Source: an uncultured virus (IMG/VR IMGVR_UViG_3300029955_000003) (Duplodnaviria > Heunggongvirae > Uroviricota > Caudoviricetes). From it: a stretch of DNA of 64,000 nucleotides. The notes under the pieces are model-generated. The model had not been told where the DNA came from. It searched no databases and saw only the letters and a program-made list of their open reading frames with translations. Each line of letters begins with the position of its first letter. The first letter of the stretch is position 1. The position numbers were made by a program, and so were the translations under genes. The DNA lies in IMG/VR virus record IMGVR_UViG_3300029955_000003. One strand, 5' to 3'. Shown one piece after another: positions 4,210 to 18,164 of the stretch.

Positions 4210-4237
4210 AAAAAGGGCGCTTTATGCGCCCTTTTTT
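4210..4237. terminator. bidirectional intrinsic terminator
   Basis: AAAAAGGGCGC-TTTAT-GCGCCCTTTTTT between convergent genes. Confidence 0.85.
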
Positions 4238-4239
4238 GT

Positions 4240-5139
4240 TTATCTATGATAGTCGGCAATTAATTTACACCAATTAATAAATTCATCATTAGGTACTGAT
4301 TGTTTACATATATTTAATTTCTTATGAACCCACTGTACATTATCTATACAATAACCGGTATTAGAATCTATTCTATCTATAGATGCAGTCTGCTTGTTAG
4401 GGCTACCTAAAGTAATATCAACACCACTTAATGCACATTTACCATTTTGTTTTTGAAAAAGTGACCACATGTCTTCAATAGAAATATCAAAATTTAAATT
4501 TCTTATAATAGCACCATGATGAATTCTAGTCCAATATGTTTTATGAATATCTCCATACCCTTTAAATGAAGAGCTATTTTTTCCTAATTGACGCTTACAC
4601 CCACAATGGGTTTGTGATCCTCTGGATAAACAATACCCCGGAACCACATAATCTTTAGTACCACATGAACATTCACACAGCCATGTTATTCTACCTCTAG
4701 AAGAAGTACCATATCGTTTTAATACATACAATTCACCAAATAATTTATCGGTAAGGTCGTTAGCAGAAGACCCACGATTCTTTTGACATCCACAATGCAA
4801 TGCTCCTTCTTTTCTGGATATAGCACTCCCGACTTTTTCAGTTATATTACCACAATCACACTTAAATTCCCAAATAAACCCCTTACCGGGTTCGATCCGT
4901 AGCGGTTTAACGGCGGTCAAATATCCATATTTGTTACCAGTAAAATCTTTCTTTTGCGAACATTCATTACAACAACTATCAAATTTTTTCTTTATCGCTT
5001 GTTGTATATCTTCGGCGGCTCTTTTTACAATATTTCCACAATCACAACGCATTTCCCATATAATATTTTTAGCTCTTCTTTCTTCTGTTGGTTTTATTCC
5101 AATAAGTTTACCAACTCTTATTCCTGTAAAATCTTTCAT
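4240..5139 (-). mobile_element. free-standing HNH-type homing endonuclease
   Basis: Three WxCxCxCG repeats; C-terminal CALSG...SIDRIDSxxGYxxDNVQWV...N; perfect TATAAATA at 5170-5177 (-). Confidence 0.8.
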
Positions 5140-5208
5140 AGTATCGTCTTTCCAATTTTGTTATGATACTATTTATATAAGCCATCTAATATTCAATGCA
5201 CAAAATAT

Positions 5209-6114
5209 TCACTTTTTAATTTTGGTTTCATATTTTTCGATGATATTTTTAAACTCATTTATCATAATTCCAATGTCTGGATTTATTTGTACGGCAACCG
5301 AAAGATTTCCATAATGAATCTCCAAACAATTTAATAATAATCTTTTGATAAGTTCCTCATTTGGTTCTACTTGTAATGATGATTGAACATACAGACTGTC
5401 GATTTCCCTTTCCATATTAGCAAACCATTCAATTAATCTCTCTAATGTCCATTCACCCCGTCTAATAGGTTTTAAAATTTCACTATTACGTTCAATATCA
5501 AGATCACACTCTAATAAAAGTTGTCTAATTTCTAAACAATTCCGAACAAGATGAGCACCGTGCTTAACATCCCATCCCATCTCATCGATTAGCTCTTTTC
5601 GTTTAGAATTTTCATATTTTTTATTTCTAATTTTAGATAATTGTGCTGCCGCATAACCCATAAATTTTGGAACCGCAGCTTTAGAATAAAATAATTTTCT
5701 ATTTTTTAAAATCAACTCACCAATTTCCGTAGTATGTAACACACATCTTCGTGGAGTCGCGATTATATCCAATATATTTGGATTGTTTTCCATACAAAGG
5801 TGAAAAAATTTAACTATAGAATATAGTGTTATATCATATTCTCTGTTTTTTTCCTTATCATCAATATGGTGTTTCTGATATACGGTAAACGGTTGTGGTT
5901 TATCGCTAAACCCATACACATATCCCCCAACACTATACGGAAATATATCAGCCTTTGGCGGAATAACGACTGAAACAATGTCCATATCAGATAAGTCGTT
6001 ATTCATACCATAGGCGATGGAGCCAGTAAGCACCTCCAACACAATGTTGTTCTTAACCCAACGAGGTGGGTTTATCCATTCCTTTTCTAAACATCGTGTG
6101 ATTACTGACGCCAT
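5209..6114 (-). CDS. Pol-beta superfamily nucleotidyltransferase (RlaP/YcgL-like)
   Basis: GSIAYG...SDMD motif, NPNILD, KHGAHLVR, IRRGEW. Confidence 0.8.
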   Translation of the reverse strand: MASVITRCLEKEWINPPRWVKNNIVLEVLTGSIAYGMNNDLSDMDIVSVVIPPKADIFPYSVGGYVYGFSDKPQPFTVYQKHHIDDKEKNREYDITLYSIVKFFHLCMENNPNILDIIATPRRCVLHTTEIGELILKNRKLFYSKAAVPKFMGYAAAQLSKIRNKKYENSKRKELIDEMGWDVKHGAHLVRNCLEIRQLLLECDLDIERNSEILKPIRRGEWTLERLIEWFANMEREIDSLYVQSSLQVEPNEELIKRLLLNCLEIHYGNLSVAVQINPDIGIMINEFKNIIEKYETKIKK

Positions 6115-6119
6115 TTTGT

Positions 6120-6482
6120 TTACTCCCTTATTGTTTCAACTCTTGTAAACTTTTTACCATTGGAAATAGGTATGAAATAATCTTCAAGCATTGATATTGG
6201 ATTATATGTTTGTAATTCCTCTTTGCATTTAGCCACAATGTCTTGCGCCCGTTCGTCGCCTATAGCATCTGGACCAAGATCAATATACCAAACTTTCCTT
6301 GTTTCGGTAGGATCAACGTCTACCACTTCATATTCGAAATCAAGATTAGTATCCCATTGTTTTCTAATATGAACGGCTTTAATTCCCGGCAAAGCATTAA
6401 ACTTCCTAAGCTCATCAACCACTCGTTGGGCACCGTCGCCCATTCCAGATGACAAAATCACTAATTTATACTTATTACTCAT
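6120..6482 (-). CDS. small protein containing a copy of the portal clip region
   Basis: VWYIDLG...YNPISMLEDYFIPIS matches this genome's portal (VWYIDVG...YNPISQLEDYFIPIS); GAGG SD before ATG 6482. Confidence 0.75.
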   Translation of the reverse strand: MSNKYKLVILSSGMGDGAQRVVDELRKFNALPGIKAVHIRKQWDTNLDFEYEVVDVDPTETRKVWYIDLGPDAIGDERAQDIVAKCKEELQTYNPISMLEDYFIPISNGKKFTRVETIRE

Positions 6483-6623
6483 TTTTTGTATCCTCTCTCT
6501 CACCCCATAAAGAACGTATTCCCCACAGGTTTGATACTGCGCACCATGCGCAATTAATATCTATAACCGTCCTATTGAAAAAGCAATGATATTATATTAA
6601 ATAAGTCTTATAAGGAGAGTAAA

Positions 6624-7280
6624 ATGCAGCGTAAATTGATTATTACTCCCGCTGAGGGAGGAGAAGATAGCTATCTTCTCACACAAGACTTTATGAAAGC
6701 CTATACAAAATTTGCAAAAAATATGAATTGGTCATTCACTTGACTCAATGAATTTACCCTTATCATAGAGGGTAAAGATGTATCACGCCTTGAGCAAGAA
6801 TCGGGCGGTCATCGAATCCAAAGAATCCCACCAACTGAAAAACGCAACCGCACTCACACGAGTACGATAACAATCGCCGTTATTGATCCAACGATAAAAG
6901 AAATCATTATAAATGATGACGACTTTGAAATTCAATGGTTTAATGGTACCGGTTGCGGCGGGCAGCACAGAAACAAGAAGGCTTGTAGCTGTAGGGTCAT
7001 TCACAAGCCCACAGGGCTGACAGAACAGCGCCAGAGTAGAAGTCGTGAGGATAATAAACGAGAGGCGTTAGAGGCGCTTAAACAGCGTTTAACATCATCT
7101 CACTCATCTACAATTAATTCTGATAAAACCAAATTGATTAAAAAGCTTCAAGGGTCGGGCGAAAGGGGCGATAAAATCAGAACGTATCGTTTCCAAGATA
7201 ATGTCACAAAAGACGACAGAACTGGAAAGGTCGCGGCGACTGATAAGATCATGTCTGGTAGGTTCGATCTTCTATGGTAA
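6624..7280 (+). CDS. class-I peptide chain release factor homologue (RF1-type PxT, PrfH-like length) with in-frame UGA at codon 40
   Basis: Own translation: MQRKLIITPAEGGEDS...NWSFT*LNEF...ESGGHRIQRIPPTEKRNRTHTS...GTGCGGQHRNK...HKPTG...GERGDKIRTYRF...; AAGGAG SD; TGA at 6741-6743; TAA at 7278-7280. Confidence 0.88.
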
Positions 7281-7321: not shown

Positions 7322-7597
7322 ATGGACCCTACTTTAAATCAATCTCCTGCTCCAATGACGCAAGACCCCGCCATTGCTCAGTTGCAGCAGCGCGCGGGCA
7401 TCAATCAACAGGTGCCTAATATTACAACAATTAATGGAAAGTTAACTGATATCGCTAATGAATTAAATTCACTAGGATCATTTTTCAAAAGCGGTGGGTT
7501 CTCTATGAATCAACAGTCGAAAATGACGGTCGGTGCTAATCTGCAAAGAATTCAAGCAGCAGTGCAAGGCTTAATCAAAGACGGACATTTTCAATAA
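7322..7597 (+). CDS. hypothetical late protein
   Basis: 91 aa; late promoter, AAGGA SD and downstream terminator. Confidence 0.7.
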   Translation: MDPTLNQSPAPMTQDPAIAQLQQRAGINQQVPNITTINGKLTDIANELNSLGSFFKSGGFSMNQQSKMTVGANLQRIQAAVQGLIKDGHFQ

Positions 7598-7621: not shown

Positions 7622-8044
7622 TTATCTGATAGTAAATGATTTCCCTTGAACAACTTCGGGGGCTTTTCTTTTAAGAGGGATGGTCAGCATCCCATGCTCC
7701 ATGATAACATCATCCACAACTTCAAAATCATGTCCAACTTTGAAATCGAGCGAGAATGCTCTTTTTGCTATACCTTTATAGATATAATCTTTATCATCTT
7801 TTGTGTTGTCAACGTTAATTGATTTGACTGTTAGGATATCGTCCTTTACTAAAACATCAATATCGGATCGAGTGAAACCGGCAAGAGCCACAACGATATG
7901 TTGCACATCTTCTGATATTTTTTCTATATTAAATGGGGGATATGAAGGGCGTTCCGTTCTCATTAAGTCATCAAATTCACGGAATAAGTTATCGAACCCT
8001 ACAATACGGGGGTGTTTAAAAAGTGTTAGTGTTGAATTTACCAT
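7622..8044 (-). CDS. ibpA: small heat-shock protein (Hsp20/IbpA family)
   Basis: SYPPFNIEK, ALAGF, YIYKGIAKRAF, HGMLTI; likely start ATG 8044 with AGGAG SD. Confidence 0.92.
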   Translation of the reverse strand: MVNSTLTLFKHPRIVGFDNLFREFDDLMRTERPSYPPFNIEKISEDVQHIVVALAGFTRSDIDVLVKDDILTVKSINVDNTKDDKDYIYKGIAKRAFSLDFKVGHDFEVVDDVIMEHGMLTIPLKRKAPEVVQGKSFTIR

Positions 8045-8675: not shown

Positions 8676-10343
8676 TTAAAATTTTAAAACCCATCGTGTC
8701 ATGCCACAATCCCATACCCGGTCGTACCCAAGGTCCTGTACCATTTCCCATTCTGTCGTACTATCCACCCATTTATGATCTGGCACCATAGAAATGATTC
8801 TATCTTTACGAAGATTCGATTTATGGATTCTCTCGGCAAATCGCTTTGTGTACCAGTATGTTGGATCAGTCATACCACCATTACTAAATCCAAGAGCGCT
8901 ATATAAATTTCCCTTTGACCAACGATTATCCGAGAATGATATTATTTCTTTTGGATTATATTTTTTAATAAAGGTTTTCAACATTTTTGATGCAATGCCG
9001 GGATTATTTTTTCCATCCGTGACAAATCTAACTAACTCATGTAGGTTCTTGTTGTGAGAAGACATGATATACCTACCCTTGGCGAACGTCATAACAGCAA
9101 CCATTTCATTTTCATTAAATGCTGCTAAATTTATCGCCGTTGATGCACCACTACCTTGTAAATGATTATTATCCATAAATTGTTTGACATCCCTCCATGG
9201 TAGTTCTTTTATGACTAACTTACGTGCGCCCACCCCTTTCTCGGATTTCTTTAAAATGTTGATGACACGTTTCTTACATGCACTATTTTTGGTAACCCAC
9301 TCATCATCAAAAATACTAACTAGACGAACACCAATTTCATTACATCTTTTCATCTTATCAAAATGATAATTCTTATCTTTACCGCCAGCTATCTCAGAAT
9401 GAAACCGTAATCCGTCTAATTCAAATGCTAAATTATAATCTGGTAAATAAAAGTCTAATTCTAATGGTTTGATTATCGATTTATTATTAGATATAAATCT
9501 GATATCTAAAGAGGTTAAGAACGATGCAAACGATCTTTCTAATGAGCTTCTGTAACCATCAGTGAGACCATATAAACGGCAATGCTTGTGGTATAGCACT
9601 TGGGATATATTAAGTTCAAAAATAGCTTCTTGAAAACTTTTAGTAGAAGCATATGCAATGAATTTATCTTTATTATCTAATATTTCTCGTGCCGCATTTG
9701 AAATATGTACCCTACTAGGGTGTGTTTTTCTTGCGTGGTCAGAGAATTCTTTCCTAATATGATGTTGTTTCATATAATGATCTACACCATATCTCTCAGT
9801 ATTAGTTGTCGCAATTATGGATTTAATTTCCGGCACTTGGGTAGGATTTACGTGTCCATACCTTTCCAACATACCAGCTTCTTTTACATCTTGTATACAT
9901 AAAATAGAATTAACTCCAAAGCGTTCCATGACGGTAGCTTCCCGCTTCTCGTTAATTTCTTCAACCTGAGAAACATTCTTTACGCCATATTTTACTAAAT
10001 TTGTATTTTCGCGCTTGACATTTATGGCGTCCGTATCTCTATCAGCAATGACAATACCTTTTTTCGTGAGGTCAGATACGCTATCCATATAACATTGACA
10101 ATTTTTACCTTTACCACAAAACGGTCTAAAACCACGATCAATATTATCCCATGCCCGCTTCTTGCCATTTCCACAAAAAGGGTTCTCGTCATGCATGATA
10201 CACCATGCTATTTCAGCATTGGTCATATCGGAATCTGGATAATTTTGTTCGATGAATGTGTTAAGTTCTTTGTCGCGTCTCATCCCTTGTGAGAAATGTT
10301 TCTTTCCACACTCTTCGATAATTTTTTTGACTCGTTCTTTCAT
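8676..10343 (-). mobile_element. free-standing homing endonuclease (Hef/Vsr-like), downstream of major capsid gene
   Basis: (K/R)YGV repeats, ELDFYLPDYNLAFELDGLRFHS, IFDDEW, HLQG, SFSDNRWS, RVWDCG; likely start MKERVKK. Confidence 0.8.
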
Positions 10344-10413
10344 AATAACATCCTTGGATACAAACACTTTTGTATTTGTATTTAACAATATCACTAATAC
10401 CAACTAATGTCAA

Positions 10414-16085: not shown

Positions 16086-18164
16086 TTACATTCCGCCCAT
16101 TCCACCCATACCGCCCGCTGGTTCGGCAGGAGGCTTTTTATAGATTTGTAGGGTCACATTTAATCTTCTCTGTTTATCAATGCGCTTATTCATATACGCG
16201 CGTCTAATTTTTTGTAATTCAGACAAGCTAACCATTATATTGCCATGCAATGGGTCTTCTGGCATTACACCCTCATCGTCTCTAGAGAAATCAAAGCCGC
16301 CGCCATCGCCCTTCTTTGATGGCACGTCGATTGAATCGAAATCAATTTTCTCTTCTTTAATTGGTTTGATATAATTAATAGCAAAAGGCATTTTAGGTTT
16401 AGTCCTAGAATATTGTTCTGTTAATTGAATTTTACGTGGATGAGCAGTTCTAGACTCCATCGCGCCACCATAAGCTGCTGCGCCCGCTGAAGTTCCAGCA
16501 GGAGCCATTCCGCCTACATCAGCGCCAGAAGAGCCTTCAGCGCCGCCCATCTTCTCATTTTCTTGTGGTGGTCCGCTGCTTGGTGGGGGTGGACCCATAC
16601 CCATATCGCCGCCCATGCCGCCACCACCCATTGCGCCCGCTGGTGCTTGCATCTGGTAATTTTCTTCTCTATACAATCTTTCATTTTCAAGAATTTGATC
16701 ATCAGTAAATTGCATTCCGTATTTCATAGCAAATCTAGCAGCAATAAACGGGGTGCCCAACAATGCCTGAAACACTGGAGTAGCTTCATTCATTCTCGAT
16801 AACTGCTTTGATTTTTCATAGTTATCAGGCGGATAGAATGCTAATGAGAAATCCCCCGGATTAAATTCAATATCGCGCCATTTACAAAACATTTTAAATT
16901 CATGGTCTAACGCCATGATTAAATTATTTTGAACACGTAAACAAAACCGAGAAAATTCAATTTCTTCCTGATATGCTACGCCCGCTCTACCATCATTGAA
17001 TACCGAGCCACCATCCTGCGATCCCTGCATCCATGCATAAGGGACACGTAATGCCGCCATCATTTTCTTTTTAAGATAATCTAAATCTGGCATATCATTC
17101 CATGGCGTACCTTCCAGTTTTTCAACTTTTGATCCGCGCTGACTTGCAGAAATCGGAATAAAATAATCTTCCAACTGCGAAATAGGATTGTAAACCGAAT
17201 CGACGCTCTTTGCAGCCGGGTTGCTGCCTAAGAATTGTGGAATACGTTTTTCATTTAATTCATTTTTAAAGTTTTCAACGATCCATGACGATCTATCGTT
17301 ACGATTCATACCAACGTCGATATACCAAACATTACGGGTAGGCGCGCGTTGAACTCTATGAATAACAGCGGCATCTTCTAAAAGCTCCCGTTGTTTAAAT
17401 GTTTTATAAATCTGTTCTAACCACGATTCACCGAATGGATACATCTGTTGATAGCGATCAGTTGATTGTTCATCATAAGAAGCGCCAGCAAATTTGCCTT
17501 CTGATAGCGAGAGTTGGATAATATGAATAGTCGGGATAACTTTAGCGTTTCTGACACCAGTGCCAGCGCCATTTACCGCCTTAACCATGTTATTATATTG
17601 GTCATTTTCCAAATCAATTTCTAAGTTTTCGATATTGAACCTGAAATTTTTTATGACCCAACCTAGAATATCACCGGAATTTTTCTCAATGACCGCCCCT
17701 AATACCTGTTTAGGATGCAGCGTGTATAATTCGAATGTTTTAGGATCACGGAATAGAAACCAATCACCGTATTTGATGACGTTTCGGATCATTCTCATCA
17801 TTCGGTTAAAGAACTGATTATCGGCAGACCACTGGTCTAACGTCTGTAATATGGTTTTGGAAATTTCTTCGGTAGCTTCTTCTGAACGCCAATTTATTTT
17901 GAAATAACGTTCATTGATATCTTTTTCCGTACAATGCTCTGCAATGATGTCAAGAGCGCGTGAAATATCTGAATCCTTATCCATCCAATCATACATATGA
18001 TAACGCTGTAATCGATCAGCACGACCGCGATAAACAGAATTAATAATATTAACGTTCTGAACATTTGCTCTAGAGTAAAAATTTTCTTCAAATGGTGAAG
18101 AACCATGAGCCTTTTTTCTCTTACGGAGAGAAGAACCCGGTTGTACCAGTCTAGTAATACCCAT
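16086..18164 (-). CDS. gp20: portal protein (gp20-like) with long C-terminal extension
   Basis: MDKDSDISRALDIIAE, LLEDAAVIHRVQRAP..VWYIDVG, EDYFIP, ALRVP, EEIEFSRF. Confidence 0.95.
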   Translation of the reverse strand: MGITRLVQPGSSLRKRKKAHGSSPFEENFYSRANVQNVNIINSVYRGRADRLQRYHMYDWMDKDSDISRALDIIAEHCTEKDINERYFKINWRSEEATEEISKTILQTLDQWSADNQFFNRMMRMIRNVIKYGDWFLFRDPKTFELYTLHPKQVLGAVIEKNSGDILGWVIKNFRFNIENLEIDLENDQYNNMVKAVNGAGTGVRNAKVIPTIHIIQLSLSEGKFAGASYDEQSTDRYQQMYPFGESWLEQIYKTFKQRELLEDAAVIHRVQRAPTRNVWYIDVGMNRNDRSSWIVENFKNELNEKRIPQFLGSNPAAKSVDSVYNPISQLEDYFIPISASQRGSKVEKLEGTPWNDMPDLDYLKKKMMAALRVPYAWMQGSQDGGSVFNDGRAGVAYQEEIEFSRFCLRVQNNLIMALDHEFKMFCKWRDIEFNPGDFSLAFYPPDNYEKSKQLSRMNEATPVFQALLGTPFIAARFAMKYGMQFTDDQILENERLYREENYQMQAPAGAMGGGGMGGDMGMGPPPPSSGPPQENEKMGGAEGSSGADVGGMAPAGTSAGAAAYGGAMESRTAHPRKIQLTEQYSRTKPKMPFAINYIKPIKEEKIDFDSIDVPSKKGDGGGFDFSRDDEGVMPEDPLHGNIMVSLSELQKIRRAYMNKRIDKQRRLNVTLQIYKKPPAEPAGGMGGMGGM

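Follow-up and report, generated by a model that had tools for sequence, protein, structure and literature searches.

Can a single domain of a phage portal persist as a gene of its own, and what would such a gene do? The question is raised by a short open reading frame, hereafter the mini-gene, in an uncultured giant T4-like phage from peat, the predicted product of which (mini) resembles in its C-terminal half the clip of the portal encoded by the same phage. Head assembly begins from the portal ring, whose clip is a hub of contact with the packaging motor, the neck, and certain immune sensors of bacteria. According to the accessible text of PMC4493910, the T4 clip comprises residues 279–358 of gp20, which form three strands and helix alpha6 and are exposed outside the capsid, and its strands form a sheet that is the sole main-chain contact between neighboring portal subunits. 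The same domain is the attachment site of gp17, with contacts at N291, M292, R295, and K296 (PMC4493910), and later of gp13, 12 subunits of which attach after gp17 (accessible parts of PMC4493910 and PMC9958956); assembly of the T4 portal requires the helper gp40 and host chaperones (PMC9958956, same scope). Within the accessible part of a recent preprint, the portal-sensing Avs families are Avs4 and Avs11, and Avs proteins recognize folds via extended interfaces (bioRxiv 10.64898/2026.01.04.697583). A preliminary description of the locus had named the terminase-docking clip of gp20 and portal sensing by Avs4 as its background; both points hold in these sources, with Avs11 as an addition to the second.

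The window, i.e., the whole 64,000-nt stretch of DNA analyzed here, carries the mini-gene some distance from an intact portal gene (Table 1). An alternative in-frame GTG at 6503 would extend the product to 127 aa, and the gene callers of public collections call it as 113 or 120 aa on eight contigs. The ATG of the RlaP-type nucleotidyltransferase gene lies 5 nt past the TAA of the mini-gene and its GGAG sits within the last codons of the latter, and the two genes together with the HNH endonuclease gene, which comes last, apparently form one transcription unit. The terminator-like hairpin at its end is a pattern match only, and no convincing sigma-70-type promoter was detected on the minus strand upstream of the mini-gene, where the number of sites equaled the shuffled expectation. 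Upstream of the mini-gene, the opposite strand carries a release-factor-like gene, after which come a small gene without an assigned family and an Hsp20 gene (7622–8044) at 1.1 kb from the mini-gene; farther on are a gene for a homing endonuclease of 575 aa and, after it, the head module with major head protein, protease, and portal. A single RNA run yielded one 257-nt contig at 7328–7584, which is outside the mini-gene and hence uninformative on it.

Table 1. Position of the mini-gene, its parts, and associated features in the window
Feature	Position	Strand	Description and basis
Mini-gene	6120..6482	minus	120 codons plus TAA stop, ATG start (ORF list and sequence)
GAGGA ribosome-binding site of the mini-gene	6491..6495	minus	8 nt before the ATG at 6482 (sequence)
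N-terminal orphan segment of mini (aa 1–60)	6303..6482	minus	Predicted strand-helix-strand, low-confidence AF2 models
Clip-like segment of mini (aa 61–118)	6129..6302	minus	Portal homology
RlaP-type nucleotidyltransferase gene	5209..6114	minus	Pfam RlaP, E 3.5e-16; phrog_388, E 1.2e-41
HNH endonuclease gene	4240..5139	minus	phrog_374, E 7.5e-36
Terminator-like hairpin	4210..4236	minus	Directly 3' of the HNH gene; consensus scan, 11-pair stem then T run
Resident T4-type portal gene (692 aa)	16086..18164	minus	Pfam Portal_T4, E 1.7e-60; phrog_213, E 5.8e-67
Clip-coding part of the resident portal (aa 276–350)	17115..17339	minus	Paralogous to mini; corresponds to T4 gp20 281–350

Several neighbors have peculiarities of their own. 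The divergent gene at 6624–7280 (plus strand) is a truncated RF1-like release-factor gene with PCRF and RF-1 domains and the GGQ present, the nearest NCBIfam model being prfA (161 bits, under the model cut-off), and it adjoins the RlaP RNA-repair-type nucleotidyltransferase. It contains a single in-frame TGA (6741–6743, codon 40) within the PCRF domain; UGA is not read by RF1, so this codon might act as a sensor of RF2 activity or else undergo readthrough. Near the 5' end of the same gene, at 6661–6680, lies a perfect 20-nt palindrome, GAGAAGATAGCTATCTTCTC. The homing endonuclease gene (8676–10403, minus strand; phrog_3339, Pfam DUF7487) directly follows the major head protein gene and has relatives in just 6 of 85 related loci. 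In the resident portal, residues from about 503 to 692 (16086–16660, minus strand) form a Gly/Met/Pro-rich C-terminal extension of ~190 residues that matches neither T4 gp20 nor the Pfam profile, which reaches only to residue 501.

The C-terminal half of mini had been proposed to align with the phage's own portal at 17148–17330, with an intervening loop deleted and an unrelated N-terminus. Both a pairwise and a profile alignment turned out to be significant: BLASTP against the 692-aa resident portal gave 49.3 bits (E 4e-12) with 30 identities in 77 columns, 21 of which are gap columns, and hhalign against a profile of 31 family portals gave a probability of 97.8% (E 1.1e-12, 62 columns), pairing mini 55–118 with portal 270–350. 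The proposed location was thus correct, and the extent is slightly wider (17115–17339). Mini matches the resident portal solely over portal residues 270–350, and the portal's clip stretch aligns without gaps to T4 gp20 281–350, inside the clip domain; the resident portal as a whole matches the gp20 structures 3JA7 and 6UZC at E about 3e-17. By hhalign and the mapping to gp20, the homology of mini extends over all three clip strands and helix alpha6, which in mini follow the order strand TRKVWYIDLG, remodeled tip and helix, strand TYNPISMLEDYFIPIS, loop, and strand RVETI. The deletion of the loop was equally borne out, since 19 residues (portal 303–321) between the helix and the second strand are absent from mini in the MAFFT alignment, and the tip of mini is two residues longer than that of the portal. 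As to the N-terminus, residues 1–54 have no match to the portal, including traces of wing or stem, by hhalign against the family profile, and the N-terminal segment has no match in the window, the 85 related loci, Pfam, PHROGs, NCBIfam, PADLOC, or 1.84 billion representative proteins.

These matches identify a domain fragment, and mini is not a portal. Pfam Portal_T4 reaches exactly its curated cut-off on mini (22.9 bits) over merely 28 of 433 profile positions, and phrog_213, the PHROG portal family, matches with E 1.2e-4 over 27 of 528 positions. Mini, at 120 aa, is without the full wing-stem-clip-crown architecture of portals (about 500 aa or more), and neither the stem helix that precedes the clip nor any part beyond portal residue 350 is present. 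The whole protein has no PADLOC, anti-defense, or NCBIfam family match, and a search of solved structures with its sequence gave nothing under E 0.009, that match being a repeat protein. Structure prediction of mini with AF2 was of low confidence, with a mean pLDDT of 50.8 when the clip-segment alignment was supplied and 48.0 for the sequence alone. In both models, the N-terminal half is drawn as a strand (about residues 5–10), a helix (16–27), and a second strand (34–44), and a helix spans residues 76–92; a strand at 63–68 appears in the alignment-based model only, which leaves the last 27 residues unmodeled, and strands at 99–103 and 114–118 are drawn only by the weaker model. This order of predicted elements fits a clip-like order and is no proof of the fold. 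In the ESM Atlas, mini feature scores were at most 0.78, and the look-alikes were only the generic alpha/beta ones of a poor model.

In the collections searched, the mini-gene is a singleton. Public protein collections hold identical copies only (three records on eight contigs), a word-based search for homologues gave one match, mini itself, among three candidates, and none of 85 candidate longer proteins contained a homologue at E up to 10. HMMER against the 1.84 billion representative proteins recovered only mini itself and a low-complexity false match (P0004), phage GenBank records contained no homologue, and none of 13 pattern matches in viral contigs was confirmed. A scan of metagenome contigs found one locus with mini, 100% identical over 8360 bp, and the contigs of three further peat DNA runs showed no difference across the mini-gene, so that no pN/pS could be calculated. 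In the 85 related loci, tblastn with mini matched only within portal genes, and a clip profile that scores mini itself at 69 bits matched just once, in the portal, in each of the five near-complete relatives (90–100% complete, including the L006 and L007 genomes), i.e., a second clip copy was found in none. L006 has adjacent nucleotidyltransferase and HNH genes on divergent strands (L006:19004–20496) and no mini-gene, none lies upstream in the relatives of the downstream nucleotidyltransferase (L003–L005), and the nearest record (G001) ends inside the portal gene, short of the mini-gene locus. Since mini is a singleton absent from relatives, a function has no backing from cross-species conservation. 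The HNH and RlaP nucleotidyltransferase genes adjoin both here (4240–6114, minus, same strand) and in L006 (divergent), which suggests that they travel jointly. On an unrelated viral contig, the RlaP-type nucleotidyltransferase gene (L004:5989–7794) is interrupted by a long intein-like insert, the open reading frame comprising more than 602 aa compared with about 300 aa elsewhere.

No cultured phage has a portal more than about 36% identical to the one encoded here, and the best matches come from jumbo phages such as Atu_ph07, Phosso, and PA5oct. Its major head protein has 598 confirmed relatives among 600 pattern matches in viral contigs, many of which are 350–385 kb long, with identities of 77% to L006, 75% to L007, and at most 58% to the rest. 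When compared with 22 clip segments of the portal family, mini is 52% identical to the resident portal, 45% to L007, 41% to L006, and 29–38% to the other 19. In a maximum-likelihood tree built from 75 columns of 23 clip segments, mini falls in a clade with the resident, L006, and L007 portals (ultrafast bootstrap 99, SH-aLRT 96), on a terminal branch of 1.18 changes per column that is ~10 times longer than those of the three portals (0.11–0.13); the tool warns of long-branch effects, and the amino acid composition of mini was flagged as unusual. No DNA repeats are shared between the mini-gene and the portal gene, and their DNA identity is 58%. A dN of 0.45, a dS of 1.0–1.9, and identity at only 26 of 61 third codon positions indicate an old split and no recent gene conversion. 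From these comparisons, mini very probably originated from this portal sub-lineage. Inteins occur in the clip-coding region of two relatives: the portal gene at L021:2030–4993 has one, between YNPM and SILEDYFF, and that at L053:3179–6877 has two, after RTGGGQ and after GGENLG, which makes the clip a hotspot for mobile elements in this portal family. Whether the deleted loop and the end of the homology in mini mark former intein sites was considered and set aside, as the intein positions in L021 and L053 are close yet prove nothing.

Is the mini-gene, then, a gene or debris? Its codon-usage score is 0.234 per codon (N-terminal half 0.301, C-terminal half 0.225), and both halves lie inside the distribution of 200 real 60-codon windows of long genes in the window (mean 0.302, sd 0.117); 400 off-frame windows average −0.458, and none reaches the values of mini. 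Only 14 of the 30 residues identical between mini and the portal use the same codon, and for the second motif strand this is the case for just 5 of 13, so residues were held while silent sites turned over. Identity to the resident portal is 8/10 in the first motif strand and 14/16 in the second (TYNPIS...PIS; an alternative 16-codon window counts 13). It is 6/18 in the tip and helix, which have a two-residue insertion and are more acidic, and in the inner loop RGS has become KFT, with basic residues still present. Among the columns that are invariant in the three closest portals, 0/7 and 3/14 are changed in the motif strands, 5/9 in the tip and helix, and 6/8 in the inner loop and last strand; the two strands (3/21) differ from the remainder (11/17) with a Fisher p of 0.0022, which is weakened by segment limits drawn after the alignment had been seen. 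Across the inner loop and last strand, the family conserves five columns, and four of these are changed in mini.

When neutral decay was simulated from the portal clip to the observed protein identity, the frame stayed open in 11% of 3000 runs, which makes the stop-free test weak when taken alone. The same simulation predicts identity at about 45/61 codons for both second and third positions; the observed values are 45/61 and 26/61, respectively. Both indels in mini are in frame. A neutrally decaying fragment with neither homologues nor expression would have counted against the preliminary description. Homologues are indeed confined to identical copies, and plain decay is unlikely in view of the gene-like codon usage, the strands kept despite synonymous changes, and the uneven spread of changes. 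On this evidence, we regard it as likely that the mini-gene is under selection.

The explanation that we tentatively prefer as a whole, at slightly less than even chances, is that mini is a portal-derived, selected clip mimic acting by strand pairing. The clip-coding segment of the lineage's own portal gene would have been copied, and the copy would have shed the loop that links helix and second strand, been fused to an unrelated N-terminal segment of 55–60 residues, and since been kept as a translated gene that is co-transcribed with the RlaP nucleotidyltransferase and the HNH endonuclease. In the course of this, the two clip motif strands would have been kept nearly unchanged and the exposed tip, helix, and inner loop rebuilt. 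Such conservation of the motif strands next to rebuilt tip, helix, and inner loop, taken together with the joining of subunits by the clip strands in T4, suggests a soluble clip mimic that might pair by beta-sheet complementation with the clip of a portal subunit or with its own copies. It would then hold, cap, or time portal subunits prior to ring closure, or, as an alternative outcome, poison the portal ring of a related co-infecting phage. Action through pairing of clip strands with the portal or with itself is a conceivable mode, closer to doubtful than to probable. A point against a role in head assembly is the neighborhood, as the RlaP nucleotidyltransferase and HNH endonuclease genes and the release-factor-like gene transcribed divergently from them rather suggest RNA repair or mobile DNA.

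Other accounts of origin and of gene status have to be weighed against this explanation. Instead of being duplicated within the genome, the clip piece could have been acquired in recent times from the portal gene of another, related phage, e.g., alongside the nucleotidyltransferase-HNH cassette that it directly adjoins. The best tree, in which mini is sister to the resident, L006, and L007 portals and thus branches outside them (support 89/61), the near saturation of synonymous sites, and the hotspot for inteins and homing endonucleases in the clip-coding region of L021 and L053 would all suit a capture. However, no portal closer than the resident one was found among the 22 family clips, the 85 loci, or the wide searches, a pairing of mini with the resident portal is not rejected (AU p 0.214), and the motif DYFIPIS is common to mini and the resident portal only, and we consider capture improbable. 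Somewhat less improbable, if still unlikely, is that the open reading frame is a by-product, i.e., a piece of a portal gene without selected function that was left by duplication or recombination near mobile genes and happens to stay open, perhaps expressed and heading for loss. Such a piece could well be a singleton missing from the closest relatives, sit on a very long branch, lose family-invariant residues (e.g., in RGS and the RIP loop), lack a confident AF2 fold, and keep its clip part open as in the 11% of simulations; the region is rich in mobile genes (the HNH gene and the homing endonuclease gene), and L006, the closest relative, has its nucleotidyltransferase and HNH genes arranged otherwise and without a mini-gene. 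What a by-product would explain poorly is that the changes are far from even, that strand residues were kept through many synonymous changes, that both halves have the codon usage of real genes, that both indels are in frame, and that the gene is preceded by a good ribosome-binding site and leaves no intergenic space unused.

If the mini-gene is selected, its product could still serve as a decoy instead of pairing strands; a decoy against portal-sensing defense, a packaging regulator, and a competitor of co-infecting phages had been suggested as roles in the preliminary description. Binding to the large terminase or to a neck protein would time or limit packaging and head completion, to the advantage of the phage or at the expense of a relative infecting the same cell; homology in the copy does not extend beyond the clip, which in T4 is where gp17 and then 12 gp13 attach (PMC4493910; PMC9958956, accessible parts). 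Yet the stretch that bears the gp17 contacts in T4 ranks with the least conserved portions of mini (6/18, with the insertion and a more acidic composition), a comparison that is weak both ways, as the resident portal does not keep the T4 contact residues either, and one clip presumably cannot mimic the ring surface seen by a pentameric motor or a 12-mer neck. A docking decoy therefore has little probability in our view. Even less probable is a decoy that occupies or misleads portal-sensing host sensors such as Avs4 and Avs11, so that the real portal goes unnoticed. Portal-sensing Avs families do exist, and a fast evolution of exposed parts would suit an arms race, but Avs proteins use extended interfaces (accessible part of bioRxiv 10.64898/2026.01.04.697583), and 58 residues make up a small part of a portal. 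A binding decoy would moreover be expected to trigger the sensor and not to silence it, unless oligomerization were blocked, and mini matches no PADLOC or anti-defense family.

Mini is thus a paralogue of the portal clip of its own phage that is specific to one lineage, evolves fast, and is joined to an orphan N-terminal segment; it is probably the product of a real gene, with its two motif strands under constraint. The case shows that clip genes can arise from a phage's own portal within one lineage, and the division into kept parts (the two motif strands) and rebuilt parts (the exposed tip and inner loop) narrows the mechanisms that are worth testing. A clip that occurs naturally on its own would offer a ready probe of motor, neck, and sensor contacts and would hint at an unrecognized layer of control or counter-defense in giant phages. 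It might even be, and this we hold to be rather doubtful, that giant phages have repeatedly and independently split off the portal clip as a soluble protein and that mini is such a birth caught early, a strand-donating helper or gatekeeper of ring assembly or a blocker of portal recognition by host sensors that would keep only the strands zipping neighboring portal subunits. Neither a ring-assembly helper nor a sensor-blocker role for a free clip was described for any virus in the accessible parts of the literature searched.

A portal domain that lives alone is unusual and, in the same literature, undescribed in print, and no description of stand-alone clip proteins was found there, most subscription journals being outside its reach; the copy in this phage is, in addition, a singleton. 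In comparison with the T4-type clip (gp20 279–358; PF07230; 3JA7, 6UZC), mini has a homologous first strand, helix, and second and third strands. It differs from T4-type portals in being free-standing at 120 aa, without stem helices, wing, and crown and with an orphan N-terminal segment added, and from the portal clip in the deletion of the 19-residue loop, a tip that is longer by two residues and recoded, and the loss of RGS from the inner loop. Pilus chaperones of the PapD/FimC type are helpers that complete the open edge of a subunit's sheet with a beta-strand until that subunit enters the polymer. This donor-strand complementation would resemble the proposed action of mini as an idea only, without any relation in sequence or fold.

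The closest counterparts emerged from a clip-profile search, in which 202 short proteins matched and 58 sequences were read. Most of the short matches had to be rejected as stand-alone genes, being portal fragments from frameshifted or short contigs, and six true small clip proteins were left among the 58. Three of them (P0103, P0104, P0113) have an N-domain of their own followed by a clip, two (P0114, P0120) have the same N-domain and a circularly permuted clip, and one (P0098) has two clip copies. The permuted order, with the motif strand YNPLSILEDYFF first and the FKIDVG strand and helix after it, is found in P0114 and P0120 and in the genes at L104:5992–6552 and L145:6004–6498, and the permuted proteins share an 'IYxRIG' N-domain with the non-permuted members. 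The 'IYxRIG' clip genes lie about 10–13 kb from the portal (about 12.5 kb in viral contigs of 174 kb and 360 kb), after a DNA polymerase B gene and ~2 kb from a GroES-like gene, and cultured homologues annotated as 'hypothetical protein' exist in Salmonella phage PHA46, Klebsiella phage fENko-Kae01, and Cronobacter phage GAP32.

Like mini, these clip proteins of Rak2/GAP32-like jumbo phages and their metagenomic relatives are encoded by a small gene separate from an intact portal gene and have a non-portal N-terminal domain, and their YNP(L/I)S.LEDYF motif strand and VF.IDVG-type strand with helix resemble the elements of mini. BLASTP of mini against P0104 aligns only round the YNP motif and is out of register elsewhere, and tblastn of eight 'IYxRIG' family members against the window matched only the portal and the motif strand of mini. 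The Rak2/GAP32-like proteins form a family across many phages, with some members circularly permuted, whereas mini is a singleton, and they have DNA polymerase and GroES-like genes as neighbors in place of RlaP, HNH, and, at 1.1 kb, Hsp20. Since the 'IYxRIG' N-domain of the Rak2/GAP32-like proteins is absent from mini, the latter is a separate case that probably arose independently of them.
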